Notes under the pieces: model-generated
What the model was told of the DNA's origin: nothing
Database searches by the model: none
What the model saw: the letters and a program-made list of their open reading frames with translations, nothing else
In this document: in pieces, positions 2,023-26,127 of the stretch
Numbering within the stretch: the first letter of the stretch is position 1
Layout: each line of letters starts with the position of its first letter
Position numbers and translations under genes: made by a program
Origin: Schmidtea nova
Taxonomy: Eukaryota
Reading direction: 5' to 3'
DNA length: 64,000 nt
Assembly (NCBI GenBank): GCA_044892505.1
Contig: CM097884.1
Coordinates: 115,382,001-115,446,000 of the forward strand

Positions 2023-5000
2023 TGGTGGGTTGTTGACCGTCAATATGACCTTGACGTTTCTATGGCTCTCATCAACAACCCAACACATAAAATGTTGAAA
2101 TTACCACCTTGTTACCCGTCACTATGTAACGTTGGTACTGTAACAAGTGGGTGGGTATTCGCAATCAGTGAGCGTCGTCAATACGAAACTATGATTGACC
2201 GAATATCTCCTGGGTCCAAGGGCTACCGATAGAAGGTTTCTTGCCCATTTTGTCCCTTCTTCGACGATTTATCTATAAGCTTTCAATAAAAATTTTCATC
2301 GGAAATTCAACATAAACACTCTGCATAACTATAAATTCATTAATACATCCAAATAAATTATTCCGAGCATCAAAACACTAATATAACCCTATATTTTACC
2401 AATATTGCATTTTATGATAATTAATACATAAAATTTTATATTTTTATAGAAAAATTTTGATCTGCAATTGAAATTTAAGAAAAATTTTTAATTATTACCG
2501 TAATTTAATCCAGTTTAGAAATAATAAAAATAAAATTTCCGTTTGTTTAAAATTGCTAATTTAATCAAAAGGACAAATTTACTCAATTTAAAAGTTATAT
2601 TAATTTTAAAGGTAATTTTATGAATTTTTCGCTAAATTGATAAATTAACTATTTCTCTAGTGCAGATCTACAAGAAATGGACCTTTCCAGAAACTACGAA
2701 GCCAGAGGAAAATTCTCCCACCCCAAACGGGTCAATCCGATTAGAACTCGAGCTCCTATGAAGCAAAATAGCCCGCTCTACCAACCAAGTAAAATTTTGA
2801 TTATTTCAGAATTATAATTTATTTTGATCAATTTTAGAAAATTTCTTGAAGAGAATATGTGGGAAATGGCCCTTCAAGTACTACAAACCAAAAAAATTCT
2901 TGCCGGGGACTCTTATCCCTCAAACTGAATTTTTATTAATAAATCTTTAAAAAAAAAAAATCTTTTCGTTTTTACTCTTTTTCGTTTGAGTTTTTATTAT
3001 TTTTATTAAAAATAAACTGTAATGTAAATGGCCTATTTGGCTGGGTATATACAATTTTATATGGTAGGTTTGAATAATAGAAATTTTTGTATGGTTTTTC
3101 TGGATGTATGTTGCCGACTAACATAACTGTGTAGAATTTTCAGTATTGTTTGCTTGTGTGTATATAACTATTGAATGCTAATAAATGATACGGTGTATGT
3201 GTGTATATTGTATTTTAAGTATACGTTGCTTGTGTATTAGCATGGGAAATGTTATTGAATGAAATGGATGTAATTTTTTGCAAATAGGGATGCATTATGA
3301 TTTTTGAGATATCGTGGGGGTATTTATAATATATATATATATAAATTATATAAAATATTTTTTTCAAAATTAAAATAATAATAATAATTTTTATATTAAA
3401 ATAATAATAATAATTTTTATAATACTTTTATAAATTTTAGATTTATAATTTTACGAAAATAATACCATAATAAAATTTCCAATTTTTATATTATAAATTT
3501 TTATAATACTTTTTATAAATTTTACATTTATAATTTTGTAAAAATATAATAATAAACTTTCTAATTTTTACAATACACATTTTCCTAATACTTTTTATAA
3601 ATTTTAGATTTATAATTTTATGAAAATAATATAATAATAAAATTTCTAATTTTTATAATACATATTTTTATAATACTTTTTATAAAAATTTTTTAATTTA
3701 TAATTTTATGAAAGTAATATAATAATAAAATTTCAATCTATAAATTTTATGGGGTTTAATATAAATTTTGATTTTTCAAATTCTCGGGAATTTTATGAAA
3801 TGATAAAATCTTTTATATATTAATAATATTAGGAACCAAATTTGGTTTACAATTTTTTCCATATAAAATCTTTTCAACATAATAAAAAGCAAATTTTTAC
3901 TTCTGATCCAAATGAAATGATAATAAATTTTTATCCATAAGTTCCGAAATCTAAATAAGCATTTAATCAAAAAAAAATTTTTATAGGCTAAATAAAGATA
4001 AAATAAAAATAAGTTATAAATTTTTCAACGAATGTTTTTAATATCAAGTAAAGTAAATTTCGGTTTTGTTGAGCATGAATTTCCCAATCAAAGTGTACGC
4101 GAATTTTTCGGGACACTTCACTTAGAAATTTCAGGCTCTCGAAAAACAAGATTCACAGGAAAACTTATTTAGACCATAATGAGCTTTAATTCAGATTAAA
4201 TCAATACTTGTTTCACAATTTATTTCACTTCATGAGCATTATTCTAGACTTGAGCATTATTTCGAACAATTTTCTTTTCATCATCAGCATCCATTTTTCT
4301 TGCATTTTCTTATGAGATGAACGTTGTTGAGAGTGTGAAGGTGAAGGTGAGTACGAGTCGATTTTTTAATCAATAATATTTCCTATTTTAGATTTCAAGA
4401 CATGAGGTAGAAATTATTATGTTGTATTACGAAATTGCTTATGTAGATAATAAAAATATGATACTCTATTATAATACAAATCATTAGTATAACAAAACCT
4501 TGCTCTTGGCCAAACCGCGGTTCCCCAGTTGGGATGACGCGAATTTGGATGTATGAGCCTCACCTTAAAGTGGAAATATGGGCTGGCCGATTACCAATCA
4601 GACAACGATCCACCCAGGCTACTAACAGATCCGCACAACTAAGGCTGGACGGATCGTCAGAAGATATGGGAGATAAAAAAAAAATTTTTATTCATTTTTC
4701 TAATTTTATTTAATTTGCTACTTGAAATAAAAACTTTTTGAGTGTATTGGGAATTTGTAACAAACAAAAGTTTTTCAAGAAAAATTGAGAATAAACTAAT
4801 CATTAAATATTTTAATAACATTATAATAAAAATACATGATCAATAAAATAATAAATAACATATTAAATAAAGGAGAGGAATGGGATGATCGTCAGGCATG
4901 ATAGACGACCATTCCAATCCCCAATGAGAATAACCAAAATCAAACAAATCCTTACGTTCCAAGCTCGAATTTTCTCAGATTTGTAACAATACGGCTTCCA

Positions 5001-5900
5001 GACGTTCGTAAAGGATTCGTAGTGTCTCCAAAAATCTTCCCGAATCAAATTGGCAAAATTATTAAATTTGAAATTCTTTCCCACAAACTCTTGTAGCAAA
5101 ATCTTTCAAAAAGAATTCTAAATTCTTGGCAGCAAAATTTTTCAAAAGAGTTCTAAATTCTTGGCAGCAAAATCTTTCAAAAGGATTCTTTTCTTTTCGG
5201 AAAAATTTTCACAAATTTTCACCAGATTCTGAGTTAGCAAAATAAAAGAAATAAGAATTTTTCCACACCAATCTGAGATCTGCCATTTTGATGGCGGTAT
5301 ATATACCATCAAATTTTCTCTATCTCCGGTAGTGCAATAAAACAAATTGTTCTAGAATTTTCTCTTAATTTTTTCTAAATTAATTCTAATGATTTTCCGA
5401 AAATTAATTCCATATTTTTGTATAATAATTTTTTATAAACTCTAAATAATTTATTTTAATTAAAAATTTTTATGTTTGAATCGAAATTTGTTCGATTTGA
5501 TTTAATTTATGATTTTCGATCCATATTAATTCTTTCTATTGTTAAATGTGAAATTTTGTGATAAATTCACAATTTTCTTCTAAAATTTTGTTAATTTTTC
5601 TGCACTGAAGATTTTATGACAAAATTCTGTTCCTTATGGGCACTCTCCATGGGTTTTTTGCCTATTCTAGCTTCCAAACATTCTGCTTTTAATTTTTCTC
5701 GCGATTTCAGTGAAAATATTTATAAATTCGCAGTTAGCGCGCATTCTACCGGTTGATGTGTTTTGATTTATCTTCACCTTTTGGTGTTTTCCACTTAATT
5801 GTTGGATTTTCAATGGAAGCTAAGGTTAAAATGGAATCTTGCGCGTTCTCTACCTATGGGGTTATCGCTTTATTAAAACACATTGCGTTTTGGCCCAACA
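2023..5900 (-). repeat. 3' LTR (3,878 bp)
   Basis: Copy of 22250-26127; duplicated ORF-track entries (3776/24003, 4863/25090, 5142/25369) share offset 20227; one substitution noticed by eye (2657 C vs 22884 A). Confidence 0.92.
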
Positions 5901-6639
5901 TAAAATACTCGGGGGCCCGCAAAAATTGCGTCCCGCAATTTCTCAGAGGGGTTAAGAACCAAGACTAATCAAAGGTCAAAAGGTTGTACATTATACACGA
6001 GCTACTTGGTCGTGATCATGCCGTTCGCGACAATAAAAATAAAAAGTTTAAAAAAAAAATTAATAAAATTATACATATACACAAATATGAGTCTACATCG
6101 ACTCGTAAGCAAAAAAATTAAATGTAATATATGTGCCTACAGCGGCTAATCAAAGTTCAATATGAGTCTACAACGACTCGGATAAAAGTTTTACCAAGTT
6201 TATTAAGTTTGTTGAATTATCAAATTCATTATTGAATTGGTTGGATCTTCGACTGGAATAGTTTGAATGACTCGGTATTGATCAATGGTTTCTTGTCATC
6301 TTCTCTTCGGGATTTCAAATGATTCTTTATTACATTGTTGATTTGGGTTTAATTGGCCTGATTTCTGGGTTTCTTTGAGATGACAATAAATTGTTGTGAT
6401 CATGGTGATTAGAAAAACTTCTCGGTACGATTTCATTGTTGATTTTTGTGTTTCCAATAGAAGAAAATTGAATAATGACGATAAATAATTTTTGCTATTT
6501 ACACGGGCGTTACGATTTTTTAAGCAGGGTTATGATTCAATGATGATGAAATATTGTTCAAGATGAGAATACAAATAAATAGATAGATTAAATGAATGGA
6601 AGAAAATACATGAATTGTCAAAAAGGGGATCGAATCGTA

Positions 6640-7464
6640 TTATTGTTTATAGAAGTAATTCATCTGCACCGAGGTTGTAGCTGTCTCAGGATTAGGCTGT
6701 TCTGGAACTGGATCTTCAAATATTGATCTTAGAAAATTCTCTGACGGGTTGTTGTCTTCATGGGTGATTCGCTTGATGGTATTCAGCTGGATTTTTGCTT
6801 TCTCTAATTTCATTTTTTCTAATCCGATTGATACAACAATGCTAAGGATCATTATGACCGCGAAAAGACTGATGCCTTGTAGAACGACTGTGATGGCTGC
6901 TTCTCGGTCCCTGACGTCTTCGTTTGTTGATCCTTGTTTAGGGATAATCTCCTTTTGCTTTTCGGGTAATATCAATTGTTTCATAATTCTCTCGGTCTGA
7001 TGAAGTTGACTTTTCAGTTTTTGATTTAACTCTTCTGTAAAACTTGATCTTTCCTCATTAACTTCATCTTTATTATTTAGAGATTTTTCTATTAACTTGC
7101 TCAATTTCTTTAGTTCGGTCGTTAACTGTTTGAAGGATGATTGGTTTTCGAGCTGTTTCTTTAGTTGAAGATTGTTTCTTTTGGTTAAGGAGATTTGTAA
7201 TTGGATTAATTGTTGAGTTTCATTTCTCAATTGTTTAAGGATGGTGATTGAATCTTCTCTGAGTTTAGGACATTGTTGACATTGTAATTGTATCTGTTGA
7301 CACTCCTCATTTCTGGTGCTACAAATTCCTTGATAGCTTACGCAAATGCTATCGGATCTTCTAAATGGATGGCTTGCTTGACATTGACTCAATGCTTCTT
7401 CGCTTCGGCAGTTTGTAATTATAAATATCATGATGGTTGTCGTGATCTTCATTAGATTGCTCAT
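6640..7464 (-). CDS. 274-aa predicted type I membrane protein (env position)
   Basis: N-terminal hydrophobic leader, Cys cluster, long coiled coil, TM-like ITVVLQGISLFAVIMILSIVVSIGL, ~55-aa tail; last ORF before the 3' LTR. Confidence 0.75.
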   Translation of the reverse strand: MSNLMKITTTIMIFIITNCRSEEALSQCQASHPFRRSDSICVSYQGICSTRNEECQQIQLQCQQCPKLREDSITILKQLRNETQQLIQLQISLTKRNNLQLKKQLENQSSFKQLTTELKKLSKLIEKSLNNKDEVNEERSSFTEELNQKLKSQLHQTERIMKQLILPEKQKEIIPKQGSTNEDVRDREAAITVVLQGISLFAVIMILSIVVSIGLEKMKLEKAKIQLNTIKRITHEDNNPSENFLRSIFEDPVPEQPNPETATTSVQMNYFYKQ

Positions 7465-7559
7465 TTTCTATAGATTTATAGATTCAAATTGGTTTAATGA
7501 TTTTTCAAATTTTCTCTTTTATATCTTTACAGGGATATTTACATGAGTTTATATATATT

Positions 7560-8135
7560 TTATTCTTTCCTCTCTTCATTTAGCTTTAACGGACTTTCTG
7601 GCTTCCAGTTTCCCATTCTTGCAATCTCGTCTGCTTCTTTTCGCCTTTGTTCTTTGAGGACGTAATTTTCTGCCGTTTTGATTTCTACAACTTTCTTTGC
7701 TTTGAATGTATCAAATTTTGCTTCTATGATTTCACTTTTCAACTTTATTATCTGTTTTTCTCTTTTGATAATCTTCTTCTGTTTGCTCTTCAATGATCGT
7801 TGTAATGACTCGATCTTAATTCTCCTTTTATTATCAGTGTTCTGTTCACTGCTTATTTCCCTTTTGAGTCTGTCAATCTCTTGCTTCTGTCTGTCGCAAT
7901 ATTTTTGAGTGAGACCATTTTGTTGGCGAAATAGATAATTTTCTCGCTTGATTATTTCCATCGTCTCGCACTCTTGCTCCATTTGTGCGATATATTTTCT
8001 ATCTTTGCTCACTACTTCCTTCAATTGGTCTATTTGGTCTTGATAATATTGCTCTGTTGCTCTTTTCCATTTTTTGAATCTTTCTTTTGATATCGTTTGT
8101 TGTTCTGGTTCTGATCTTTGCTTCAATAGTCTCAT
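7560..8135 (-). CDS. 191-aa basic coiled-coil orphan protein
   Basis: Intact ORF with the same cassette layout as its neighbours. Confidence 0.72.
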   Translation of the reverse strand: MRLLKQRSEPEQQTISKERFKKWKRATEQYYQDQIDQLKEVVSKDRKYIAQMEQECETMEIIKRENYLFRQQNGLTQKYCDRQKQEIDRLKREISSEQNTDNKRRIKIESLQRSLKSKQKKIIKREKQIIKLKSEIIEAKFDTFKAKKVVEIKTAENYVLKEQRRKEADEIARMGNWKPESPLKLNEERKE

Positions 8136-8397
8136 TTTCTATAATTTGAATTTTCATAACTCTTTTCTACAGTTTTATTAATTTTGTTTTTGTTTTTATC
8201 ATTTTTATCATTTTTATCATTTTCTAATTTTTATTTGTTTTTCATTTTTTCTAATTTTGATTGAATTTTTATTTTTTCTGCTTTTTATTTAATTTTTTGG
8301 ATATATTTTACAACTTTTCTTTTTACATTTCTTTACAACGTTTTCTTTTTACACTACATTTCAATTTCTTTTTACACTTTACATTCACTTTTATTAT

Positions 8398-9945
8398 TTA
8401 TACAAACGTCTCTTCAATTTCTCCGAACCCTTCGTCTTCGATTTGAGGATTTTCTTGCTCCAAATGTACAGGTTGTATTGGTGTTGGATATAGTGGCCAT
8501 AGAATTATTGGAGGTTGATTTTGTAGGCTCTGAACTCTTTCTCGCAAAGTTCTTGAGATTTCCATCTCTTCATCTAGCAAATATGTCATATAATCGAGTT
8601 CTTCACACAGCTGTTCCTTTTCTATCTCGAGCTCTCTCGTATTTTCCATATTTTTCAACCTTTCAATTTCTCTTTCATAGTTTTGGCGATTTTCTTCCAA
8701 ACTTTGGATAGCCATTTCAATCTCATACTGCGATTGCTGGATCGCTTTCTCACATTCGGCCTTTGTTTCTTCTATCTGCCGTCGCTGGTGTTGAATGACA
8801 ATGTCTTTATGCGTATTTGTTCCTCGATATCCGTTGACTTCACGGTTTGCAATAGTCAATTCGATTGTCAATTCTTCAATACTTCTATCATCCATATTCT
8901 TCTGTTGATCATATTGCCTATTTTCAAATTCCAGATATTTGATACGAGCTTCTTGATTCCTGGTGAATTTCATTCTCCTTTGATTCCATTCAGTTTTTAA
9001 TTGAACTTGCCTTCTTAATTCTTTGTTTTCTATCTCTTGCTTTTCTGCATTTTCCCACAATTCTGCTTCATTTATTGACATCAGCTTCTTTGGGAATTCT
9101 CGTAGTTCGTCTCGAGTTCTTTTCCAGGTCTTTTTCCATGTTCTGGCTTGTTCTATTAGCCACTTTATTTGATGCTTTGTGCTTCTTTCTCTGAACTGTC
9201 CGCTCGTTTTCAACTGGAATATTTCTTTTCTGAGTTTCTCCGTTTCCTCATGACGTATGTCTGCATACCAATGACATTCCTCTTTCAGAGCCTCGATTTG
9301 AACGTCTCTCCGTCTTAGTAATTCTTCGTGTAGCATTTTTCTGTGTCGAGCCATTTCCAATAAATCTTGGTGTTCTTGTTTCCATTTCCTAGCCTCTGCT
9401 TTAACCTTTCTAATGATCTTTTCTTGTTCGCTTTCAGGCTGGATTTCTCTCGTTCTCGTTTTAGGTTTCTTTTGAGGTTGTCCTCTCAAGGCAAATGCTT
9501 CATCTCGACACTTTTCCCATTTCTTTTTCATGGCTTCATATCTATTTCTTTCACTTTCTAGTTGCTGCTGATAGAATCTTATGGAGTTGTCATACCTTGT
9601 TTCGGTATCTCTTTTATAGGTTTCGAGCTCATCTTTTCTCAATCTTGCTTGATTTTTCAACGGTACCGACTTTCGTTGTTCGTGCTCGAGTTTTCTCTCC
9701 ATTTCTCTGTACTCTCGTTTATAATTGTCTAGTTCAGCTTCGATATGTGCCTTGTCGTTTATTAGCTTTCGCAATTCCTCGTTTTCCTCTTTTATTTTGT
9801 TGATCTCTTGGGTTCGTTTTTCAATCAATTTAACGTTCTCTTGGATGGCTTCCATTCTTTGTTCATAGCTTCTCATTTGATTTAGTTGTTCTTGTCTTTT
9901 GGCCATCTCCTGATCTAGGATGTCTATCAATTGTTGTATATTCAT
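8398..9945 (-). CDS. 515-aa long coiled-coil orphan protein
   Basis: Uninterrupted E/K/R/Q-rich heptad-like ORF with a Pro-rich acidic tail. Confidence 0.8.
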   Translation of the reverse strand: MNIQQLIDILDQEMAKRQEQLNQMRSYEQRMEAIQENVKLIEKRTQEINKIKEENEELRKLINDKAHIEAELDNYKREYREMERKLEHEQRKSVPLKNQARLRKDELETYKRDTETRYDNSIRFYQQQLESERNRYEAMKKKWEKCRDEAFALRGQPQKKPKTRTREIQPESEQEKIIRKVKAEARKWKQEHQDLLEMARHRKMLHEELLRRRDVQIEALKEECHWYADIRHEETEKLRKEIFQLKTSGQFRERSTKHQIKWLIEQARTWKKTWKRTRDELREFPKKLMSINEAELWENAEKQEIENKELRRQVQLKTEWNQRRMKFTRNQEARIKYLEFENRQYDQQKNMDDRSIEELTIELTIANREVNGYRGTNTHKDIVIQHQRRQIEETKAECEKAIQQSQYEIEMAIQSLEENRQNYEREIERLKNMENTRELEIEKEQLCEELDYMTYLLDEEMEISRTLRERVQSLQNQPPIILWPLYPTPIQPVHLEQENPQIEDEGFGEIEETFV

Positions 9946-10079
9946 TCTGAAATAATAATAACATGGGTAATTTCCTTTTGTTTATACATTTTTTGTTGCT
10001 CATGCTTATAAAATAATACTTGTATACATCGATTGAAATTAAAATCTTTACAATTTATTTACAAAGTTGTTTGATTGGA

Positions 10080-11249
10080 TTATTGGTCGGCATAACGGAA
10101 TCCCTTGATCCGTTTGTCGACCGGTTTCCTGCACATTGAGCACAATCTCAATTTATTGCTACAATTTCCACAAGCTAACAGATGTCCACACGGTAAATGA
10201 ATAACTTCTACTTTCTTTATCCAACAGATTGAACAGGGGTGTTTATTTAATATAACTTTCTTGATACATGATTCTGGGTTGACAACTTGGGATTTCCTGG
10301 TGAACTGTATTATAGCTTTGAAAAATTCTAGGGTTGATCCAAATGTTTCTCCATTTCTTCTCAATCTCTCTCTGATAACTTCTTTCACAAATATTTCGCT
10401 TTTGCCGGTACGTTCCATTGCCTTTTGAGTTCGTGGTTCGTCTAATATCTTATCTACTAATAATTCATTAACAGGCATCTCTGGGTTTTTATAATTGATC
10501 GGTTCTTCGTCTTCATATAATTCTTCTCCATATTTACAATATTCGTTGTGTTTCAGGTATTCTCCTTCTTCTTTTGGTAATTGATATTGTATTCCACACT
10601 CTGAACATTCAGCGGTTGATTCATTTATTGCATAAAAACCTTCTATTGCTAATCTGATACCCATCTTTTTATCTGCAAAGGTGTCAGTTCTCCCATTAAT
10701 CGTATATTTTGGATCAATTTCTATAAATCGTATCTTTGCTGGGCCTGTTGAAGTTATCGTTACTATTTTGGGTTTTTCTTCTTCATAATTGTTCATTGTT
10801 GCTGGTTTTCTTGGTTTTTCGCATGCCTTTAACACAAACTGGCACGTGGGTGAAAGTTTTCTATGTTCTGTTAGTGGATCATCGTTAATTCTCCAAGGTT
10901 CTATTTCAATTCTGCAAAATACACAAGTTACTTTATCGGGTTTCTCGATTGTCCCTGCAAAATACAAACCATCTTTGGCGAATTTTCTGTATTGCTTTTC
11001 ATAGAAATTGTCTTGTTGTAAAAAGGTTATATATCTTCGGTTCTCATTTTTCAACGTTTCATCGATAGTTTTGAATTTGCCATAATTTCTTTCCTTGGGA
11101 ACATTCGATATTGTTCGTGTAAATTGACAATAAATCAATTCTGAGGTAATTGGTTTTGACATCTTTTCTTTACCTCTTTTCATTAATTCGCATAAACTTT
11201 TGAATGATCTGTCATCTTCTCGTACTTTCACGATCTTCCTTTCAGTCAT
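10080..11249 (-). CDS. Inhibitor of apoptosis (BIR, degenerate BIR, UBA-like, RING)
   Basis: Canonical BIR DKVTCVFC...W...DDPLTEHRKLSPTCQFV; second BIR-like RTDTF...GFY...CSEC; C-terminal RING CSIC...LPCGHLLACGNC...CSMC. Confidence 0.93.
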   Translation of the reverse strand: MTERKIVKVREDDRSFKSLCELMKRGKEKMSKPITSELIYCQFTRTISNVPKERNYGKFKTIDETLKNENRRYITFLQQDNFYEKQYRKFAKDGLYFAGTIEKPDKVTCVFCRIEIEPWRINDDPLTEHRKLSPTCQFVLKACEKPRKPATMNNYEEEKPKIVTITSTGPAKIRFIEIDPKYTINGRTDTFADKKMGIRLAIEGFYAINESTAECSECGIQYQLPKEEGEYLKHNEYCKYGEELYEDEEPINYKNPEMPVNELLVDKILDEPRTQKAMERTGKSEIFVKEVIRERLRRNGETFGSTLEFFKAIIQFTRKSQVVNPESCIKKVILNKHPCSICWIKKVEVIHLPCGHLLACGNCSNKLRLCSMCRKPVDKRIKGFRYADQ

Positions 11250-11473
11250 TGTATCTACAATATTTTCTCCGTTATATTTTCACAATTTTTGTTTTCTATA
11301 TTTACAAAATTTTGATTTTTCTCATTTTTATATTTGATTTTTCGGTTTTTTCTCATTTTTATATTTCTTTTTGATTTTTATATTTTTTTGTGATTTTCTA
11401 ATTTTATTTTGTACATTATTATACAGATACTTTATTATAATACAGACATATTTACACTTTCTTTTCATCTTCA

Positions 11474-12877
11474 CTACGGCTTTCTTACTTCGATAATCAG
11501 ATACAGGATATTATTTACCAAATATAATGATTGTTCTGTGGTTAAATAATGTAATGCAATAAAACGTGGATTTCCTACAGCTACGTTGTAGTCTTCGATC
11601 GGCTTCCTATAAGCTGCTTCTACCTTCTTCAAGTTTGGTCTGAATACTTCCCGAACGTTGTTTTCCTTTGTTCCGATCATCATAGTTATATCGCAATCGT
11701 AGGGCCATTCTAACCAATCGTCATAATCTCCTTTACATATTTGAAAATATACAGATAAATGAGTTCCGGCTCCTAGTCCGTCTCCCGTTAGATATACTTT
11801 GAATCTAAGCTTGTAACCATGTTTCCAACTGTGACAAGGTGGACTTGTCCATACACGTTGACCTCCTTCTCTTGCTAGTCTCAATTTCTCTGTAAATTCT
11901 GTGATTTTCCAATAGTAGGGTGTGACGGGTAGTTCTTCCATTGTTGGCAATATGCTTTCCAATCTTTGTTGGATTGTTGATATTTCTGCTATTTTCTGGT
12001 CTAATAGTATCATTTTTTGGATCATTTGTTCTCTTATTCTTTCAAAATTTCCTCTCGTATCCAAAATCTCTTGTATCATGATTTTGTGAGATTTTATTTC
12101 TGTGTTGGCTTCTCCAATTACCAGTGCGGTTGCTCCAATAGCTTCCACAACGGTTCTCAAATGATTTACACTATTTTCATCTACATGCTTTTGTATTTCC
12201 TCTTTTGGTAATCTCACTTTGCAATTGAATAATTTTAGTGGACATGCAGTAGGCTTCTTTTCGCATATTTCCCAATGTTCTTTTAGCTTCACGTTTTCTG
12301 CCATTCCACATTGATTACAATTACCTTCATACTCGTCACATACTTGCCCTTCTTCTATATTCCAATGCTCATCTTTTAACACTATCCAAGCGTCTGTTTC
12401 GTTGCAAAACTCACATATTTCCTGTCGTTGTTCACACATTTCCTCATGACTGTCTTTGACTTTCTTCAACATTTCTTCTTCACACCACTTGCATTTGGCT
12501 TTCGTATCATCACAATTATAAAGGTGTTTGGCGATCCATTTTATTGGCCCACTCCATACACATGGTTTATTTGGACAGGTTGTTGCTGCGTTCATTATTT
12601 CCCGATTCATTGCGATATCTGGTCTGGTTTGGTCAAATTGGTCTATTATTGCTTCACCACATTCAGGACATAGCTTCTGTTTTGTTCGTATTATTTTCAT
12701 CACGCAATTAGTGCATATTCGACATCCACATTCAGTTTGTCTGGGTTCTATCAATAAATTTCTACATACTTTACATTTAAATCTTTCTTGAAATTCTGTT
12801 GGTTCTATCCGTTGTCTCTGTAGTATCTGATATAGTTCGATCAATTCCTCTTGTTTCTGCTGATTCTCGGTCTGCAT
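11474..12877 (-). CDS. TNF receptor-associated factor (TRAF2/3/5-like): RING, TRAF zinc fingers, coiled coil, MATH
   Basis: RING CKVC...ECGCRICTNC...CPEC; several Zn fingers; MATH signature GYKLRFKVYLTGDGLGAGTHLSVYFQICKGDYDDWLEWP. The ORF is open from 12937; probable ATG 12877. Confidence 0.95.
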   Translation of the reverse strand: MQTENQQKQEELIELYQILQRQRIEPTEFQERFKCKVCRNLLIEPRQTECGCRICTNCVMKIIRTKQKLCPECGEAIIDQFDQTRPDIAMNREIMNAATTCPNKPCVWSGPIKWIAKHLYNCDDTKAKCKWCEEEMLKKVKDSHEEMCEQRQEICEFCNETDAWIVLKDEHWNIEEGQVCDEYEGNCNQCGMAENVKLKEHWEICEKKPTACPLKLFNCKVRLPKEEIQKHVDENSVNHLRTVVEAIGATALVIGEANTEIKSHKIMIQEILDTRGNFERIREQMIQKMILLDQKIAEISTIQQRLESILPTMEELPVTPYYWKITEFTEKLRLAREGGQRVWTSPPCHSWKHGYKLRFKVYLTGDGLGAGTHLSVYFQICKGDYDDWLEWPYDCDITMMIGTKENNVREVFRPNLKKVEAAYRKPIEDYNVAVGNPRFIALHYLTTEQSLYLVNNILYLIIEVRKP

Positions 12878-12971
12878 TCTAAAATAATTTATAATTTTTT
12901 CGTTTTGCTTTTTATACCAAGTTTTATTCATATTCACATTTTTACATTTTATTTACACTGGTTTTAAATTT

Positions 12972-13607
12972 TTATAATAGTTCATCCCTTCCCGTCGAGT
13001 CAGGTTCTCGAACCGATTCTGGAAAATTGTCTAACCAGTTATACCATGCTCTGACTTCTTCTCGCGTCTCATTCAATCTTCTAATTTCGTTTGTTTGCCA
13101 CTCCGTATGTCTTGTTAACCATTCAATTCTCTGGTCCTTTTGGATTATCATTTGTTGTTGTTCTTCCATTTTAGCAAGATATAATAAATTTCTGTTTACA
13201 CTTTCTGTTAACAAAGCTTGTTCGTTTTTCCATTGTGCATAGGCTTGATTCAACATCCTGCTTATTAATTCACATTGCGTTTTCCATGATAACTCTTGCG
13301 TCATTGTCTGCTGATAAACCATCGGAGCTGATATTGATTGAGTCTGGCTATTTGTTGGTTGTTGATTTAATACGAATGTCGTTTGAATTGGGTTCATGGT
13401 TTCATCAAATAGTGGAATTTCGACTTGGTATATCAGGTTTCTATCATCAATTGTTGGATTTTGCGTTTCATTTTCGATTACTGGGGTTTGCAGTGACCCT
13501 TCTCTTTCTCGTATATTGGTATCTTCTGGAAACTGAGTTTGATTTGATGGTTCATTGAACGTTGGAACTGATGTTTGATAACTTTGATTCTCGTTGTTCG
13601 AATTCAT
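12972..13607 (-). CDS. ~211-aa orphan: N/Q/T-rich N-terminus plus C-terminal coiled coil
   Basis: Intact ORF co-oriented with the other cargo genes and with similar A-rich composition; no family recognised. Confidence 0.7.
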   Translation of the reverse strand: MNSNNENQSYQTSVPTFNEPSNQTQFPEDTNIREREGSLQTPVIENETQNPTIDDRNLIYQVEIPLFDETMNPIQTTFVLNQQPTNSQTQSISAPMVYQQTMTQELSWKTQCELISRMLNQAYAQWKNEQALLTESVNRNLLYLAKMEEQQQMIIQKDQRIEWLTRHTEWQTNEIRRLNETREEVRAWYNWLDNFPESVREPDSTGRDELL

Positions 13608-13758
13608 TTCTGTCAATAATTACACAATATTATCATTTGTTTTTCCCAGTTTTGAGGTATTCATTTTTTTGGATTTTTAAATTTTTATTATACTAATATA
13701 TTCTACTTTTATAATACAATATAATTTTATACACTATATACACTGTTCCTTCCACTGG

Positions 13759-16700
13759 TTACTCTGACAACTTGCGTTTCGACGACATCCTGATGTTCTC
13801 ATCTGGCTCGTCGGTTAATATGACTTTTATGTCTTCTTGGGTGACTTTTGAACCATTATGTGCTACTATCTGGCATACGAGTGTTCTAAACATTTCTTGT
13901 GATGCTTTCTTTTTGTAAACACAGATTTTATATTTTGTTTCTCGTTTTAATCCATTTATTCGGATTTCTCCTCCTTCTGCTCGTTGACATTTGACTGGAT
14001 TATCTCCTTTAATTTGCAATTTGCCTCTACTCCAACATGCTTCTTCATTATCTGCTCCTTGTATTAATATTTGTACTGGTTTTCTTTTGTCATCAGCTTC
14101 CGTTCCTTTCAATGCTGACAGCATCAATATCAGTAATATTATGTCTTTTATTCGAGTTTTATGTAGACATGCTGTTCGATTTTCATAATTTGAAGTTTCT
14201 TGCTTGGGTTCATCACTTTTGTTCCCAATTTCATCGTTATTGCTGTTTCCATCATCTTTCTCGTCTTTGTCATTGTTTCTGTTGATACTTTCATTGTCAT
14301 CTTTCTTTGTTTTGTTGTTATTATTCTCTTCATCTTCATCGTCAGGCTCATTGTGATCATCAGAACCACCCTCGGTTCCGATTAAAATGTCGTCCTCGAC
14401 ATTTATTAATTTTATTATTTCCTCATATCTTTTAGCTATTTCGTCTGCTTCGGCTTTTATATTTGCTCTCTTGGTTATTTCATCTTTGACGTTGTTCCAG
14501 CTTCGGTGAATTCTGCTTTCTTTTATATTTTCTTTCCATATGATAACTTGCTGATATAATTCCTGTCTTTTAGCTCCAATTCTTTCTTTTTCTTTTTTGT
14601 TGTTCGTAAACCTGAAATCAGGTCTTTGCAGCAATGCTTTAATCGTTTTATACATTTTCCATTTTCTTTTCATGGCTCTTTTCATTATCATATTTTCACC
14701 GTCTTCAAATCTGTCATTGACATTTATCACTCCTTCGTGCGTAACTGGATGTAACCATTTAATCATTTTTGCTGTTGTTTCGTCGGCATCTTTGTTCACT
14801 GCATTTACTAATGGATTTGGATCTGAACTGAGTACTTCAATATCTTCCTCTGTGGCATTTGACATAATATATTTGATTATTTGATGGTTATTTGCTTGCA
14901 CTGCATAAGATAACACCGTTTCATTTTTATCATCTCTTTCTTTAAAACTTGATCCGGTTCTCATCAGTTCTGCTATGAGTTTCTTGGATCCTCCTTTTTC
15001 AATTGCTACCATCAAGGGTGTTTGATCTTTCCAGTTTTTCGTGTTGGTATGTTGTTTACACTTTTCCATGAGTTTTATGATTTCAAACATTCTCTGTTCA
15101 TTCCCACTTTTTATTGCGTGGTATAATGGTATCTCATCTTTAAAACTGGCAATTGTAAGTAATATTGGTAATCTTTCTTTTATGGTATTCATCGCTTCTG
15201 TCGTTTCATTTCCTTTGGCATATTCCTCAACCATTAAGCTTACTCCTCCCAATATTTCAAATAGATTTTTACTTTTTGACCATTCTGGCATAATTTCTTT
15301 GGTAATCTCAATGATCAATTCCATCTTTTTGCGGTGCTCCATTTTTACATCGTCAACTACCTTAGGTTGTTCAGATATTGTTGTTGGCTGATTTACTTTT
15401 CTGCTCGTAGTTAATATACGATGTAGCCAATCGTCATTTTTATTCTCTCGAAACATATATACTTGTCCTTTTCTGGTTGTTTCTGGATTTGATTGTTCTA
15501 TCATTGTTTCTCTTGTGCAATTCTCTTCAATTTGGTGTTTCAACTTCATCGTATTCAAATCAATTACAGATCCTTTTAACAGTTTTGGTATTAAGTCTGT
15601 TCCAATAATGCATGAGGTACCCAGTTGTTTTATTACTGTCAAATAAGTTGATATTTTTATTTTCCTGTATTCGATGTTCGTCCATATTTTTCCAACGATA
15701 TTGACAGATTCTTTGCTGCATGTTATTACGTCTACTGATGTTTTCTCGATGCATAACCGTAACAATTCTGGTATCATATCGATATCTATTGCTGATATAT
15801 TTGCGCCAGTATCTATCATCGCGTCTACTTTTACGCCATTAACTTCGATGTTAATTGTAAGTGTTGGTCCAGCTGGAGTTTTCATCATTGCAATTATCGT
15901 TGTTTCGGGATTATCTTCACCTCTCGCTTTTCTGGTCAACTCGCTTCCTGCAATTTTATCAATAGTTAATTTATTACTTGTTTCGATTTGTATCGGGGCT
16001 ACACCGATTTCTATATCATCATCCAGCGATTCTCCATCATATTTCAAGTGAAATGGTAAATTGAATGGTAATCTCTCTTTTATCTCTTTGATCTTTGTTG
16101 TTAATGATACATTCATCTTTATTTCTTCTAGACTCGGAAACTGAATTTTCAATCTGCACATCTGTGGATCATCGTTTGTTTGTTCCAGTTGTTTCCATTT
16201 TCTCATGATGTCATCAAATTGTGTTGAATACCAAGGGCATAAACGTCTGCATTTCTCGATTTCTCTCACTATCAATCTCATGTTTGATATATTTGCACTA
16301 TTTTTTATAACCCATTTTAGTAATTCAGTTGTTGTTTCATATTGTTTTCCTGCACTCTTGCTTAGGTTACTGATTAATCGTTCGGTCTTTGACGTTTCCG
16401 TTTGTCTTGATCTCTCGAGCTTCGCTGATTTCCTCTTTTCCTCCGACTTCTGATTCATTTTCGTCATTTCTTCTATGGTAATGGTTAACAATCTTTGTGC
16501 CACTTCTTCTAATTTGATTGTCGTAGATTCATTCCATTTCTCGTCCATGCTACATGTGTCATCATCGCTTCTTCTTTCTCTTCTTTTTCGGTTATATTTC
16601 TCCACAAACTTCTTCTTTTCTTCTCCCTCCATATCTTTTACTGAAAATTCATATACATTTCCCTTTCTTTCAATTTCAACGTCTGGTAATTCGGCTATCA

Positions 16701-16869
16701 TTTCATTTACTTTTTCTTCGATATTCTGTTGTAGTTGCATTTTCATTGTTATTACTTCTTTTTCTTCTTCCTGCAAATTATCTTCTACATTTGAACTGGT
16801 TATTTTCTGCTCTTCTTTTAATAAATTATCTTCTGAGTTTGTACTGGTAACTTTCTGATTTTCCTCCAT
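13759..16869 (-). CDS. ~1,036-aa polyprotein: charged N-terminus, ubiquitin-like segment, retropepsin (DTG), ankyrin repeats, acidic linker, internal hydrophobic signal-like stretch
   Basis: VNGVKVDAMIDTGANISAI (DTG at 15805-15813) and IIGTDL flap/C-terminal motif; ankyrin-like PLYHAIKSGN, QTPLMVAIEKG, ETVLSYAVQANN; IILLILMLSAL near 14100-14146. The ORF track starts at TTG 16881; the first ATG is 16869. Confidence 0.8.
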   Translation of the reverse strand: MEENQKVTSTNSEDNLLKEEQKITSSNVEDNLQEEEKEVITMKMQLQQNIEEKVNEMIAELPDVEIERKGNVYEFSVKDMEGEEKKKFVEKYNRKRRERRSDDDTCSMDEKWNESTTIKLEEVAQRLLTITIEEMTKMNQKSEEKRKSAKLERSRQTETSKTERLISNLSKSAGKQYETTTELLKWVIKNSANISNMRLIVREIEKCRRLCPWYSTQFDDIMRKWKQLEQTNDDPQMCRLKIQFPSLEEIKMNVSLTTKIKEIKERLPFNLPFHLKYDGESLDDDIEIGVAPIQIETSNKLTIDKIAGSELTRKARGEDNPETTIIAMMKTPAGPTLTINIEVNGVKVDAMIDTGANISAIDIDMIPELLRLCIEKTSVDVITCSKESVNIVGKIWTNIEYRKIKISTYLTVIKQLGTSCIIGTDLIPKLLKGSVIDLNTMKLKHQIEENCTRETMIEQSNPETTRKGQVYMFRENKNDDWLHRILTTSRKVNQPTTISEQPKVVDDVKMEHRKKMELIIEITKEIMPEWSKSKNLFEILGGVSLMVEEYAKGNETTEAMNTIKERLPILLTIASFKDEIPLYHAIKSGNEQRMFEIIKLMEKCKQHTNTKNWKDQTPLMVAIEKGGSKKLIAELMRTGSSFKERDDKNETVLSYAVQANNHQIIKYIMSNATEEDIEVLSSDPNPLVNAVNKDADETTAKMIKWLHPVTHEGVINVNDRFEDGENMIMKRAMKRKWKMYKTIKALLQRPDFRFTNNKKEKERIGAKRQELYQQVIIWKENIKESRIHRSWNNVKDEITKRANIKAEADEIAKRYEEIIKLINVEDDILIGTEGGSDDHNEPDDEDEENNNNKTKKDDNESINRNNDKDEKDDGNSNNDEIGNKSDEPKQETSNYENRTACLHKTRIKDIILLILMLSALKGTEADDKRKPVQILIQGADNEEACWSRGKLQIKGDNPVKCQRAEGGEIRINGLKRETKYKICVYKKKASQEMFRTLVCQIVAHNGSKVTQEDIKVILTDEPDENIRMSSKRKLSE

Positions 16870-17637
16870 TTCTTTCTGCAAATCGGCTACAAACTTTCTA
16901 ATATTGTGGATTTTACTTCTTTATTTATCAGCTTTATTTCTTTTTAATTTCCTTTCGTCGTTTTTAATAGATTTGACTCTTTATCTTTCGACTTTACGAA
17001 CTTGGTTGGTTTGGTAATATTGTCAATTTGTGTTTAATATCGATTGCTGATCTTTCTTTTATCTTCAATTGGATCTTCTTTGATTTATTTTCTTTTACTT
17101 CTTTCCTTTTCAATTAGACTTCTTTTCTTCTTTTCTTCTATATATACCTCTTCAATAACTGATTGATTCGACTATCTCTTGGCTTGGCTTTGATCTGTTG
17201 GACAATCTAAATAAAAATATCGCTTCTTCATCGACGCCATTTACCCCCCTTTTATTCTGAGCTCAGATTTTAAATTATCTATATCTCGTAATAATTATCT
17301 ATATGGTCGTATCAGTTATCTATACCCTGATAATAATAATAATAATAGTAACAATAATAATAATATTACTAATACTATAATAACAGTATGATCATACTCA
17401 TCTCGGCATTTGAGGAAAAAATGTCTTGTTCGTTATCTATTCATGGCCATTATTTTATTTCCTAAGTATTTCTCGATGTCTTTTATCTGCTCTTATTAAC
17501 GGTTTGTATTACTACACCTTAAGTATTCGCGTTCAATGTTTTTCTCTGTCATAACAAAATTTTTTCTGCGCAGTTTTATTTAATTCTATCTCTCAAACGT
17601 TTTTCCTAAATTTCTCAACAATATCCATAAACATTGG

Positions 17638-18132
17638 ACTCTCAAAGTCTCTCACATACATGAACTCTCAAAGTTTCTCAATTATCTGGACTCTCAAAGT
17701 CTCTCATACATGAACTCTCAAAGTTTCTCAATTATCTGGACTCTCAAAGTCTCTCATACATGAACTCTCAAAGTTTCTCAATTATCTGGACTCTCAAAGT
17801 CTCTCAATTATCTGGACTCTCAAAGTCTCTCCCAGAGCGCTCAATTATCTGGACTCTCAAAGTCTCTAAATTACCTGGACTCTCAAAGTCTCTCAATTAT
17901 CTGGACTCTCAAAGTCTCTCAATTATCTGGACTCTCAAAGTCTCTCAATTATCTGGACTCTCAAAGTCTCTCAATTATCTGGACTCTCAAAGTCTCTCAC
18001 ATACATGAACTCTCAAAGTTTCTCAATTATCTGGACTCTCAAAGTCTCTCACATACATGAACTCTCAAAGTTTCTCAATTATCTGGACTCTCAAAGTCTC
18101 TCACATACATGAACTCTCAAAGTTTCTCAATT
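17638..18132. repeat. Tandem array of about 19 units of ~26 bp (ACTCTCAAAGTYTCTCA...)
   Basis: Units end in either ATTATCTGG or (CA)TACATGA and alternate A/B over part of the array; there are no unique spacers. Confidence 0.95.
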
Positions 18133-19192
18133 TTTCTCGGCCGTCTTCGATTATTCTCTTTATACTATTTAATCACTCGCTTTCCTATTCTCGATTTTTA
18201 ATTTTTCACAAATAAATTCGCTGTTACTGACTGGTTTTCTCAAATTGTTCTACTACTTCTCAATTACGAATCAATTCCCTAACTACCATGGTAGAATCTT
18301 TTCTTATTATACTATCATCTACTATAATCATCGAAATTCACTTTTTACTCTTTCGACTTTCTAAAATCTGCATCTGATTTTCTCAGCAACTTTCTCTTTA
18401 CTCATGTTACTGCCTTCTACCTCAGTGTACCAATCATGCCTTGGCAAACTGGTGTATAAGACGAACATTACGGGTTTAGCCCTTTCACCTAATTCAAAAT
18501 CGTAAAATAATCGCGTCAACTTGTTTCGCAATTTGTGATGATCAGTCACAAACGAAATTTATCGACATTTGCGATGGTTAACCTATTCTACTTTTTTCTC
18601 TTCAGGATAATCAAGTTTTTCCCATTTATTACAAACTATCTTTTGTCACAAAAAAAATTGGCGTACTATCTTTTGATAGCTCTATTAAAATTTGGCGTAC
18701 TATCTTTTGATAGCTCAGTTATGAATTTGTGGATTATTTTCTCGTTTCTACTCAGACACTCATTTCTCACTGTATTTCGGAAGGTTTCCTTATAAAATCA
18801 ACTCCTATAACGCTACTTATTGCTCGTCCTAATACATACATATTCATATATATAATGATCAGTATAATAATGATAATCAATATAATAATGGTAATAAGGA
18901 AGATTTATAGTAATAAAATTCGGATCATTATAATACTGATGATGAGGAAGATTTATAATAATAATAATAATAAAGGAAATTCAAAAAGAAAAGAAAAGTA
19001 ACTTTGTCACAAATTCCCATTTTCCTAATGTTTGATTTTTCGGCATTAGCCGTTACTTGTTATGTTTTTTACACGACTCTCAATCATTAATTACCTAGTG
19101 TTCTGTGTTTATTTAATTTTTACGACGATTTGGAGTACTGGATGATCGACGATGTTCAACACGACTAAAACATTTATTTCGAACGACATTCT

Positions 19193-19675
19193 TCACGAAC
19201 AAAATACCATGATTTTGTCATCAATTGTCTGTTTGCAGATTACGCATCTCTTTATTTCTCTAGAACACGGCTGGCAATAACACAAATGTCCGCATGGCAT
19301 GAATAAAATGTTCGCTTCTTTTTGTCGACAAATATAACATCTTTCGAACGAATCGATCTGTTGATTTATCGATTTCTCTAGCTTGTCCATGATTTTATCG
19401 ATTTTACCAATCCATTCTTGTATTTTCAGATTAAAATTCGGATTATTCAGTCGCAATCGTTGTAATTCGTAAATTGTTTCTAACGAAATATCGTTTGTTG
19501 TTCCTACAACTCCTGCAATCACTATTAGATTCTCAGGTTGTGGTCTAGGATTCAACAATAATTCATCTTTTATTCCATTTACTCGTTCGAGTTTCTCGCT
19601 CAACACCTGCAATGGGTCATCTTTAAAATCGAAAAACAACTCGATTCGTAGTAAAATATGCTCAATCGATTCCAT
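19193..19675 (-). CDS. 160-aa protein with C-terminal C3HC4 RING finger (IAP/MYLIP-like E3 ligase type)
   Basis: CYIC...PCGHLCYCQPC...CVIC motif near the C-terminus; intact ORF with TTTTAG directly before the ATG. Confidence 0.85.
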   Translation of the reverse strand: MESIEHILLRIELFFDFKDDPLQVLSEKLERVNGIKDELLLNPRPQPENLIVIAGVVGTTNDISLETIYELQRLRLNNPNFNLKIQEWIGKIDKIMDKLEKSINQQIDSFERCYICRQKEANILFMPCGHLCYCQPCSREIKRCVICKQTIDDKIMVFCS

Positions 19676-19781: not shown

Positions 19782-19825
<44 letters not shown>

Positions 19826-22221: not shown

Positions 22222-22239
22222 ATCCCGGCTGAGCCCCCA
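22222..22239 (-). promoter_or_regulatory. Primer-binding site, tRNA-Pro type
   Basis: Minus strand reads TGGGGGCTCAGCCGGGAT, 16/18 identical to the MLV tRNA-Pro PBS TGGGGGCTCGTCCGGGAT; 10 nt inside the 5' LTR. Confidence 0.88.
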
Positions 22240-22249: not shown

Positions 22250-25200
22250 TGGTGGGTTGTTGACCGTCAATATGACCTTGACGTTTCTATGGCTCTCATC
22301 AACAACCCAACACATAAAATGTTGAAATTACCACCTTGTTACCCGTCACTATGTAACGTTGGTACTGTAACAAGTGGGTGGGTATTCGCAATCAGTGAGC
22401 GTCGTCAATACGAAACTATGATTGACCGAATATCTCCTGGGTCCAAGGGCTACCGATAGAAGGTTTCTTGCCCATTTTGTCCCTTCTTCGACGATTTATC
22501 TATAAGCTTTCAATAAAAATTTTCATCGGAAATTCAACATAAACACTCTGCATAACTATAAATTCATTAATACATCCAAATAAATTATTCCGAGCATCAA
22601 AACACTAATATAACCCTATATTTTACCAATATTGCATTTTATGATAATTAATACATAAAATTTTATATTTTTATAGAAAAATTTTGATCTGCAATTGAAA
22701 TTTAAGAAAAATTTTTAATTATTACCGTAATTTAATCCAGTTTAGAAATAATAAAAATAAAATTTCCGTTTGTTTAAAATTGCTAATTTAATCAAAAGGA
22801 CAAATTTACTCAATTTAAAAGTTATATTAATTTTAAAGGTAATTTTATGAATTTTTCGCTAAATTGATAAATTAACTATTTCTATAGTGCAGATCTACAA
22901 GAAATGGACCTTTCCAGAAACTACGAAGCCAGAGGAAAATTCTCCCACCCCAAACGGGTCAATCCGATTAGAACTCGAGCTCCTATGAAGCAAAATAGCC
23001 CGCTCTACCAACCAAGTAAAATTTTGATTATTTCAGAATTATAATTTATTTTGATCAATTTTAGAAAATTTCTTGAAGAGAATATGTGGGAAATGGCCCT
23101 TCAAGTACTACAAACCAAAAAAATTCTTGCCGGGGACTCTTATCCCTCAAACTGAATTTTTATTAATAAATCTTTAAAAAAAAAAAATCTTTTCGTTTTT
23201 ACTCTTTTTCGTTTGAGTTTTTATTATTTTTATTAAAAATAAACTGTAATGTAAATGGCCTATTTGGCTGGGTATATACAATTTTATATGGTAGGTTTGA
23301 ATAATAGAAATTTTTGTATGGTTTTTCTGGATGTATGTTGCCGACTAACATAACTGTGTAGAATTTTCAGTATTGTTTGCTTGTGTGTATATAACTATTG
23401 AATGCTAATAAATGATACGGTGTATGTGTGTATATTGTATTTTAAGTATACGTTGCTTGTGTATTAGCATGGGAAATGTTATTGAATGAAATGGATGTAA
23501 TTTTTTGCAAATAGGGATGCATTATGATTTTTGAGATATCGTGGGGGTATTTATAATATATATATATATAAATTATATAAAATATTTTTTTCAAAATTAA
23601 AATAATAATAATAATTTTTATATTAAAATAATAATAATAATTTTTATAATACTTTTATAAATTTTAGATTTATAATTTTACGAAAATAATACCATAATAA
23701 AATTTCCAATTTTTATATTATAAATTTTTATAATACTTTTTATAAATTTTACATTTATAATTTTGTAAAAATATAATAATAAACTTTCTAATTTTTACAA
23801 TACACATTTTCCTAATACTTTTTATAAATTTTAGATTTATAATTTTATGAAAATAATATAATAATAAAATTTCTAATTTTTATAATACATATTTTTATAA
23901 TACTTTTTATAAAAATTTTTTAATTTATAATTTTATGAAAGTAATATAATAATAAAATTTCAATCTATAAATTTTATGGGGTTTAATATAAATTTTGATT
24001 TTTCAAATTCTCGGGAATTTTATGAAATGATAAAATCTTTTATATATTAATAATATTAGGAACCAAATTTGGTTTACAATTTTTTCCATATAAAATCTTT
24101 TCAACATAATAAAAAGCAAATTTTTACTTCTGATCCAAATGAAATGATAATAAATTTTTATCCATAAGTTCCGAAATCTAAATAAGCATTTAATCAAAAA
24201 AAAATTTTTATAGGCTAAATAAAGATAAAATAAAAATAAGTTATAAATTTTTCAACGAATGTTTTTAATATCAAGTAAAGTAAATTTCGGTTTTGTTGAG
24301 CATGAATTTCCCAATCAAAGTGTACGCGAATTTTTCGGGACACTTCACTTAGAAATTTCAGGCTCTCGAAAAACAAGATTCACAGGAAAACTTATTTAGA
24401 CCATAATGAGCTTTAATTCAGATTAAATCAATACTTGTTTCACAATTTATTTCACTTCATGAGCATTATTCTAGACTTGAGCATTATTTCGAACAATTTT
24501 CTTTTCATCATCAGCATCCATTTTTCTTGCATTTTCTTATGAGATGAACGTTGTTGAGAGTGTGAAGGTGAAGGTGAGTACGAGTCGATTTTTTAATCAA
24601 TAATATTTCCTATTTTAGATTTCAAGACATGAGGTAGAAATTATTATGTTGTATTACGAAATTGCTTATGTAGATAATAAAAATATGATACTCTATTATA
24701 ATACAAATCATTAGTATAACAAAACCTTGCTCTTGGCCAAACCGCGGTTCCCCAGTTGGGATGACGCGAATTTGGATGTATGAGCCTCACCTTAAAGTGG
24801 AAATATGGGCTGGCCGATTACCAATCAGACAACGATCCACCCAGGCTACTAACAGATCCGCACAACTAAGGCTGGACGGATCGTCAGAAGATATGGGAGA
24901 TAAAAAAAAAATTTTTATTCATTTTTCTAATTTTATTTAATTTGCTACTTGAAATAAAAACTTTTTGAGTGTATTGGGAATTTGTAACAAACAAAAGTTT
25001 TTCAAGAAAAATTGAGAATAAACTAATCATTAAATATTTTAATAACATTATAATAAAAATACATGATCAATAAAATAATAAATAACATATTAAATAAAGG
25101 AGAGGAATGGGATGATCGTCAGGCATGATAGACGACCATTCCAATCCCCAATGAGAATAACCAAAATCAAACAAATCCTTACGTTCCAAGCTCGAATTTT

Positions 25201-26127
25201 CTCAGATTTGTAACAATACGGCTTCCAGACGTTCGTAAAGGATTCGTAGTGTCTCCAAAAATCTTCCCGAATCAAATTGGCAAAATTATTAAATTTGAAA
25301 TTCTTTCCCACAAACTCTTGTAGCAAAATCTTTCAAAAAGAATTCTAAATTCTTGGCAGCAAAATTTTTCAAAAGAGTTCTAAATTCTTGGCAGCAAAAT
25401 CTTTCAAAAGGATTCTTTTCTTTTCGGAAAAATTTTCACAAATTTTCACCAGATTCTGAGTTAGCAAAATAAAAGAAATAAGAATTTTTCCACACCAATC
25501 TGAGATCTGCCATTTTGATGGCGGTATATATACCATCAAATTTTCTCTATCTCCGGTAGTGCAATAAAACAAATTGTTCTAGAATTTTCTCTTAATTTTT
25601 TCTAAATTAATTCTAATGATTTTCCGAAAATTAATTCCATATTTTTGTATAATAATTTTTTATAAACTCTAAATAATTTATTTTAATTAAAAATTTTTAT
25701 GTTTGAATCGAAATTTGTTCGATTTGATTTAATTTATGATTTTCGATCCATATTAATTCTTTCTATTGTTAAATGTGAAATTTTGTGATAAATTCACAAT
25801 TTTCTTCTAAAATTTTGTTAATTTTTCTGCACTGAAGATTTTATGACAAAATTCTGTTCCTTATGGGCACTCTCCATGGGTTTTTTGCCTATTCTAGCTT
25901 CCAAACATTCTGCTTTTAATTTTTCTCGCGATTTCAGTGAAAATATTTATAAATTCGCAGTTAGCGCGCATTCTACCGGTTGATGTGTTTTGATTTATCT
26001 TCACCTTTTGGTGTTTTCCACTTAATTGTTGGATTTTCAATGGAAGCTAAGGTTAAAATGGAATCTTGCGCGTTCTCTACCTATGGGGTTATCGCTTTAT
26101 TAAAACACATTGCGTTTTGGCCCAACA
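22250..26127 (-). repeat. 5' LTR (3,878 bp)
   Basis: Near-identical to 2023-5900; followed on the minus strand by a 10-nt spacer and the PBS; imperfect terminal inverted repeat TGTTGGG/TGGTGGG. Confidence 0.92.

Follow-up and report, generated by a model that had tools for sequence, protein, structure and literature searches.

A Burro-like LTR retrotransposon of Schmidtea nova with splice acceptors before its cargo genes and a predicted AUG-free leader

The giant Ty3/gypsy retrotransposons Burro/GYPSM1 of planarians are portrayed in PMC6431247 as combining multi-kb long terminal repeats (LTRs) and a very high copy number with cargo domains (RING, MATH/TRAF, BIR, ankyrin, SUMO-like and coiled-coil) that stand beside a retroviral protease. 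Section 7 of that article describes accessory open reading frames (ORFs) and contains no splicing scheme for them. A literature search of titles and opening abstracts retrieved no such scheme for Burro; Lee 2026 and Grohme 2018 lay outside its scope and may address it. The element analysed here was found in a 64,000-nt stretch of the Schmidtea nova genome (NCBI GenBank assembly GCA_044892505.1, contig CM097884.1, positions 115,382,001 to 115,446,000 of the forward strand), referred to as the window and numbered from its first letter. It is an LTR element of 24.1 kb on the minus strand (2023-26127), and its 5′ LTR is followed by eight same-strand cargo ORFs (Table 1). Each of these begins just after a splice-acceptor-like AG, which probably serves to join an AUG-free LTR leader to the gene.

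With Burro/GYPSM1 the element shares multi-kb LTRs with TG..CA ends, a target-site duplication (CAAT, 4 bp), cargo domains of the RING, MATH/TRAF, BIR, ankyrin and SUMO-like types (the last a weak match, E 0.022) and a very high copy number, with 1,855 first-look candidate copies in its own genome (1.25 Gb), the best 40 at 98-100%. It falls short of the total length of that group (>30 kb). Instead of a Gag-protease-reverse transcriptase (RT)-RNase H-integrase polyprotein of ~5,000 aa (4,873 aa in Burro), it holds eight or nine separate ORFs; a Pfam search of the eight ORFs detected a protease domain and no RT, RNase H, integrase or recognisable Gag. Because these two defining features, size and polyprotein, are absent, the element was not filed as Burro1; it is Burro-like and non-autonomous.

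Leader splicing to many acceptors is known from complex retroviruses of the HIV-1 type and from the adenovirus major late unit. The locus resembles these systems in its single predicted AUG-free leader, the many alternative acceptors before start codons and an optional small leader exon, and differs from them in being a non-autonomous gypsy-type element whose strong donors both lie before the primer site. Within the Metaviridae, env of the Drosophila errantiviruses gypsy and ZAM is expressed from a spliced subgenomic RNA that joins an upstream exon to the downstream gene (parts of PMC12992720). A single acceptor is used there. The present element has eight or nine, together with a predicted non-coding leader located within the LTR, which suggests an LTR-driven programme that far exceeds the one env splice known from gypsy elements. 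Same-strand gene rows with UUNYAG acceptors and gaps of ~100-300 nt are also features of flatworm spliced-leader (SL) operons (passages of PMC12582326 and PMC8629364), from which the element differs in its strong upstream donor and AUG-free first exon.

If true, this reading would point to a retrotransposon that has attained gene regulation of the complex-virus kind, and a large share of the TRAF and IAP transcripts in the animal may be transposon-derived. The cargo of Burro-type elements is anti-apoptotic in part, and the IAP of Burro1 (B-IAP) is reported, in a portion of PMC13465017, to protect planarian stem cells. Burro RNA rises on knock-down of smedwi-2/PIWI, according to PMC8532177.

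Splice acceptors before the cargo start codons

The first-pass annotation had placed a YAG 0-6 nt before the ATG of all eight cargo ORFs, and every one of these contexts was confirmed, with AG-to-ATG offsets of 0, 6, 2, 1, 5, 1, 3 and 3 nt from ORF1 to ORF8; six of the eight sites read TTNYAG. The pattern was enriched both over other ATGs and over shuffled sequence, the comparison that had been proposed. Other classes of ATG carried a YAG at this distance in 11-18% of cases (internal coding sequence, 45/255; non-coding internal, 14/123; LTR, 14/98; outside the element, 85/601). When the 60 nt before each ATG were shuffled, eight out of eight had a P of ~5e-7, or 3e-6 without TRAF, whose start was chosen post hoc; seven of eight at p=0.18 gave 4e-5. 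The TRAF start, annotated as the third in-frame ATG, is at 12877 in fact the second. Since 21 of 27 copies keep the upstream extension open, the copies do not decide the start. The best full-length TRAF homologues, with a query starting at 12877, align query residues 16-30 to their own residues 9-26, which favours this start; the homologue search returned relatives of ~26-40% identity only.

Acceptor use was read from sister copies by searching the genome of the element for the bases that follow each acceptor, preceded by other than the usual upstream letters. Since the element is copied through RNA, spliced RNAs can leave intron-less copies, which are datable fossils in the genome and whose exact junctions are given below. 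Acceptor-anchored searches find events at the chosen AGs only; the position-unbiased tests were limited to a donor-anchored search at 15660 and a survey of 26 other deletions.

Nine distinct precise GT..AG deletions ended exactly at six of the eight ATG-proximal AGs. The proposal that these AGs act as acceptors on an LTR-driven precursor therefore stands for six genes, with RING and IAP lacking a precise junction. At ORF2, the search gave 160 matches, with the junction form in 99 of the 100 listed and 16916-16876 missing in 29 of the 30 aligned. Contigs of two sequencing runs contained, at 16876, a joint of 41 nt whose ends were of splice type; the four runs behave as DNA, two of them showing ~130 distinct flanking sequences beside the LTR end. 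Carriers of the 41-nt loss are scattered over the tree of the adjoining kilobase, a distribution that recombination could also produce, and some are tandem. The ORF3 acceptor yielded one match (13732-13610 lost in copy L165), and all three matches at the TRAF acceptor had lost 12917-12879 (L010-L012; probably one event). All six matches at the ORF6 acceptor (9947) were junctions, formed with donors 10062 (four), 9987 (one) and 15660 (one), and the single match at the ORF7 acceptor (8139) used donor 15660 (L013). Among the 93 matches at the ORF8 acceptor (7468), seven used donor 7542, one more did so with a mismatch and one used donor 11578; the remainder were A-run variants (82) or other changes (2).

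Two deletions were not counted as GT..AG: that of L126, which ends at the ORF8 AG and starts with AT in the window, and that of L050, which removes the ninth-ORF spacer and is 1 nt off canonical. The acceptor-anchored searches thus recovered 9 GT..AG deletions among 11 distinct ones (exceptions, L003 and L126). In the loci compared, the other distinct deletions of at least 25 nt were GT..AG in 3 of 26 cases, each in an element that also carries a deletion ending at an ATG-proximal AG. Copies carrying other junctions showed no enrichment for loss of the 41-nt segment, which was recorded in 1 of 16 scorable rows (the same element accounts for two rows).

The cryptic donor at 15660, located in the ORF2 protease, was used in sister copies. 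A search anchored there gave 10 matches, comprising five joined to an internal AG 64 nt away, two long-range junctions, two 1-nt insertions and one break to unrelated DNA. The long-range junctions (15660-9947 and 15660-8139) span 5.7 and 7.5 kb, and both reach ATG-proximal AGs, which constitute 6 of the 247 downstream YAGs (P ~6e-4, or ~0.008 when only the 57 TNYAG sites are counted). In these two events, ATG-proximal AGs win at long range, and the 15660-8139 junction demonstrates that the precursor can stay uncut across four spacers. The use of one donor with several distant acceptors on an uncut precursor, as expected for a common leader, was thereby observed for the cryptic donor, not for the leader donor.

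A similar layout was present in L188, a decayed RT-bearing relative with similarity to the element in TRAF (46% identical) and ORF6. At one clear junction, TTTATAG stands two bases before the ATG, and TGTAHATA, a motif that also recurs behind the stops of the element (Table 1), is found at +15/+16 and +18 after two stops.

The LTR leader and the proposed splicing mechanism

Transcription is predicted to start near 25501, downstream of a TATA motif and of CCGCCAT, which we take to be YY1-like. The leader exon predicted from this point was compared with those of 42 LTR copies picked by their TATA motif, giving a sample of 43 with the window. All of these have a GTRAG donor within 46-355 nt of the initiator-like site, and 40 of the 43 have no ATG before the donor, seven of these 40 having one only across the donor's own G. 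Among 26 leader types, ATG was observed twice against 84-86 expected, making it the most depleted trinucleotide (next ratio, 0.36; CAT, 0.46); beyond the donor, ATGs number 3-10 per 300 nt. The predicted leader ranges from 46 to 355 nt over at least 26 types (copies L034-L195), as against 95-99% identity in the coding region, a contrast that points to rapid change or swapping of LTR segments. The 81-nt block that could form a second leader exon is kept in 36 copies and missing in nine LTRs examined. It may instead be a hairpin, and neither donor 24790 (37 LTR copies) nor the boundary in front of this exon (36 LTR copies) showed a junction. A further donor lies at 21292.

Cis-splicing of the AUG-free LTR leader onto each gene is, in our judgement, the likely explanation of the YAG-ATG pattern: acceptors were used at six sites, and AUG is depleted before the LTR donor. 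The host spliceosome would join the single 5′ LTR leader exon, via donor 25182 and with or without the 81-nt second exon, to a chosen acceptor, which would place each cargo gene as first ORF on a separate mRNA, presumably translated by scanning from the leader. Unspliced RNA, which carries 89-401 ATGs ahead of the cargo starts, would keep the primer site and be copied, presumably by the enzymes of an autonomous relative, and leader-spliced RNA would lose this site and leave no copies. The mRNAs may end either in each spacer or in the 3′ LTR. At ORF8, the AG-to-ATG offset is 4 nt in 81 and 5 nt in 1 of the 93 matches, instead of 3; these 82 shifted copies therefore speak against in-frame reading across the junction, which fits a non-coding leader.

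Several observations weigh against this mechanism. Every donor observed is cryptic or local, and no leader-to-acceptor junction was present among the sister-copy DNA junctions. Because both LTR donors precede the primer site, leader-spliced RNA is not copyable, so that such fossils are expected to be missing and their absence has no bearing on the mechanism. Five of the seven junctions from donor 15660 use the internal AG 64 nt away, and cryptic introns within coding sequences were lost as well (19640-19607, 11752-11710 and 6418-6373). The search at the RING acceptor, whose filter would miss donor 21292, gave one match with a 1-nt indel and no spliced copy, and that at the IAP acceptor gave one match (L003) with an imprecise deletion ending 2 nt short; some donors escape the filters of these searches. 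About 160 copies without the ORF2 acceptor still persist. The acceptor AGs show no clear excess of conservation over the bases beside them in these young copies (0.96% against 1.7% minor alleles). The leader types are related, so that their ATG deficit should not be read as 26 separate tests, and the choice of LTRs relied on the TATA motif. In the decayed copy L188, the next ORF has no YAG before its ATG.

Alternative explanations

The element could be an operon that is polyadenylated and SL trans-spliced at each AG, with the LTR donor serving the first intron only. This arrangement appears unlikely, and is less likely than cis-splicing of a common leader. Six of the eight sites and six of the seven gaps (94-262 nt) agree with the UUNYAG acceptors and the limit of ≤300 bp given for flatworm operons in passages of PMC12582326, where acceptors are also described as often common to cis- and trans-splicing, making a mixed mode possible. 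Trans-splicing, however, would not require a first exon that is free of AUG and followed by a strong donor. The flatworm spliced leader ends in AUG (same passages), and this AUG would miss the reading frame at four of the eight sites and open frames of 27-33 codons over the ORF6 and TRAF starts. Precursors uncut across four spacers, as revealed by the 15660-8139 junction, also argue against it. An SL outron has no competing donor upstream, but three donors (25182, 24790 and 21292) are located there in the element. Poly(A) hexamers in the spacers occur at chance level (A(A/T)TAAA expected 0.6-0.89 times per tight spacer) and lend no support to per-gene polyadenylation, which the first-pass annotation had suggested. 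Of its two candidate mechanisms, the common leader gained weight from the AUG-free LTR exon with its donor and from the long-range acceptor choice, and trans-splicing found no support beyond the acceptor consensus and the short spacers.

The spacers could also be short introns with TGTAAATA after the stop as donor, producing a polycistronic mRNA read by re-initiation with stop and start ~18-28 nt apart, which we regard as improbable. The recurrence of this motif was verified, with its positions corrected (Table 1) from the approximate 12950, 11452, 10058 and 7540 given earlier, and the series (TGTAHATA) also includes TGTATATA at 13742. Its chance occurrence in the interval of 15-18 nt, which was picked post hoc, is ~0.001-0.002 per stop. 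At two of these sites, GTAAAT at 10062 and 7542 served as donor in four and seven copies (an eighth with one mismatch). ORF3 and TRAF nevertheless used other donors despite the presence of TGTAHATA, spacer-less copies make up a handful of the ~1,855 candidates, and the conserved letters (the T before GT and the TGTATATA variant) would suit a site for an RNA-binding protein better than a donor.

TGTAHATA presumably equals a Pumilio element, and its distance from the stop would place it just outside the terminating ribosome. Its interpretation as a UGUA site for CFIm was set aside, as planarians reportedly have no UGUA/CFIm signal (parts of PMC5068929). PTBP1 shields RNAs from nonsense-mediated decay beside retroviral stop codons, according to PMC4764554. 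By analogy, the element might employ virus-style splicing of nine genes from the LTR, with separate mRNAs for IAP, TRAF and RING that all end in the 3′ LTR and are shielded from nonsense-mediated decay by a Pumilio-type protein bound to TGTAHATA, an extended scheme that is proposed only tentatively and is more doubtful than leader splicing itself.

An internal promoter for each gene, with the AGs ending small 5′ untranslated region (UTR) introns or representing remnants of them, is very unlikely: the 41-nt GT..AG intron 5′ of ORF2 does lie behind a 2.3-kb non-coding stretch able to hold a promoter, but six spacers comprise only 94-262 nt, are A-rich and must also accommodate 3′ UTRs, and the AUG-free LTR exon would be left unexplained. 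Least probable of all is that start-codon context produces the YAG-ATG link as a side effect, the precise deletions arising only from the cryptic splicing that a long AT-rich RNA undergoes, since the loss of cryptic short introns within coding sequences and the confinement of acceptor-anchored searches to chosen AGs are outweighed by the P of ~3e-6 to 4e-5 for the YAG pattern, the arrival of both long-range 15660 junctions at ATG-proximal AGs and the ATG deficit of the LTR.

Coding constraint and further features

All eight ORFs are under purifying selection (pN/pS, the ratio of non-synonymous to synonymous polymorphism, 0.16-0.29; 3 to 65 copies per ORF). An IAP homologue search retained 0 of 828 candidates, and an exact protein look-up returned 0 of 9 proteins. 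The ninth ORF (ATG at 6436) is intact in other copies (L045, L050 and L200), where its product is hydrophobic at the N-terminus and matches no Pfam family above cut-off; there the YAG lies 17 nt upstream, beyond the 0-6 nt rule. The sub-lineage to which the window copy belongs has the ORF truncated and its acceptor-like site missing. The site is absent from 7 of 29 scored copies, including two of the three scored as truncated there. The primer-binding-site-like 18-mer has a putative likeness to tRNA-Pro. Rfam and ARAGORN searches gave 0 matches each.

Table 1. Coordinates of the features of the element in the window.
Feature	Position	Strand	Remarks
5′ LTR	22250..26127	-	3878 bp, TG..CA ends; 1 mismatch to 3′ LTR
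Predicted core promoter	25497..25532	-	TATA 25532-25525, CCGCCAT, initiator-like TCAGA ~31 nt after TATA
Predicted common leader exon, 319 nt, no ATG	25183..25501	-	donor GTAAGG at 25182; exon use predicted
Possible second leader exon, 81 nt, no ATG	24791..24871	-	CAG before, donor GTGAGG at 24790
Primer-binding-site-like 18-mer	22222..22239	-	10 nt inside from 5′ LTR end; 3′ of both LTR donors
ORF1, RING finger, 160 aa	19193..19675	-	acceptor-like AG ends 19676
41-nt GT..AG segment ending at ORF2 acceptor	16876..16916	-	lost in most of 160 pattern matches
ORF2, 1036 aa, retroviral-type protease and ankyrin repeats, weak SUMO-like match	13759..16869	-	AG-to-ATG offset 6
ORF3, 211 aa, no Pfam	12972..13607	-	acceptor 13610
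ORF4, TRAF (RING, zf-TRAF, MATH)	11474..12877	-	acceptor 12879
ORF5, IAP (BIR and RING)	10080..11249	-	acceptor-like AG ends 11255
ORF6, 515 aa, no Pfam, charged, coiled-coil-like	8398..9945	-	acceptor 9947
ORF7, 191 aa, no family above cut-off	7560..8135	-	acceptor 8139
ORF8, 274 aa, hydrophobic N-terminus and C-terminal hydrophobic stretch, no family above cut-off	6640..7464	-	acceptor 7468
Ninth-ORF remnant	6296..6436	-	shortened by internal deletion, without acceptor-like site; 264 aa in other copies
TGTAHATA, 15-18 nt after stops of ORFs 2, 3, 4, 5 and 7	13742, 12957, 11456, 10063, 7543 (7536..13742)	-	TGTATATA at 13742, TGTAAATA at the other four
3′ LTR	2023..5900	-	3878 bp

A GC-rich block before the 3′ LTR (window 5901-5940; L188 7370-7400) is common to the element and L188 and is possibly a shared replication signal; no plain purine tract is present. 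Copies spaced 20-22 kb apart (C1:384831498-384875338 and C1:449974109-450015311), which have the 41-nt loss in common, suggest tandem arrays. Deletion variants of ~3.1-3.4 kb (10076-13379 and 10099-13177; copies L005, L007 and L200), which are not GT..AG, remove TRAF and IAP and were seen in several copies and two sequencing runs. The long non-coding stretches at 17600-18180 and 19780-20200 contain a 26-nt tandem array and A-rich repeats that vary between copies.

Elsewhere in the window, a broken gypsy-type element occupies 43600-47900 on the plus strand, its RT, RNase H and integrase fragments lying in different frames. A long inverted repeat at 56648-56880 has 64-nt arms (97%) and resembles a miniature inverted-repeat transposable element (MITE); a related 47-nt piece lies at 49780.

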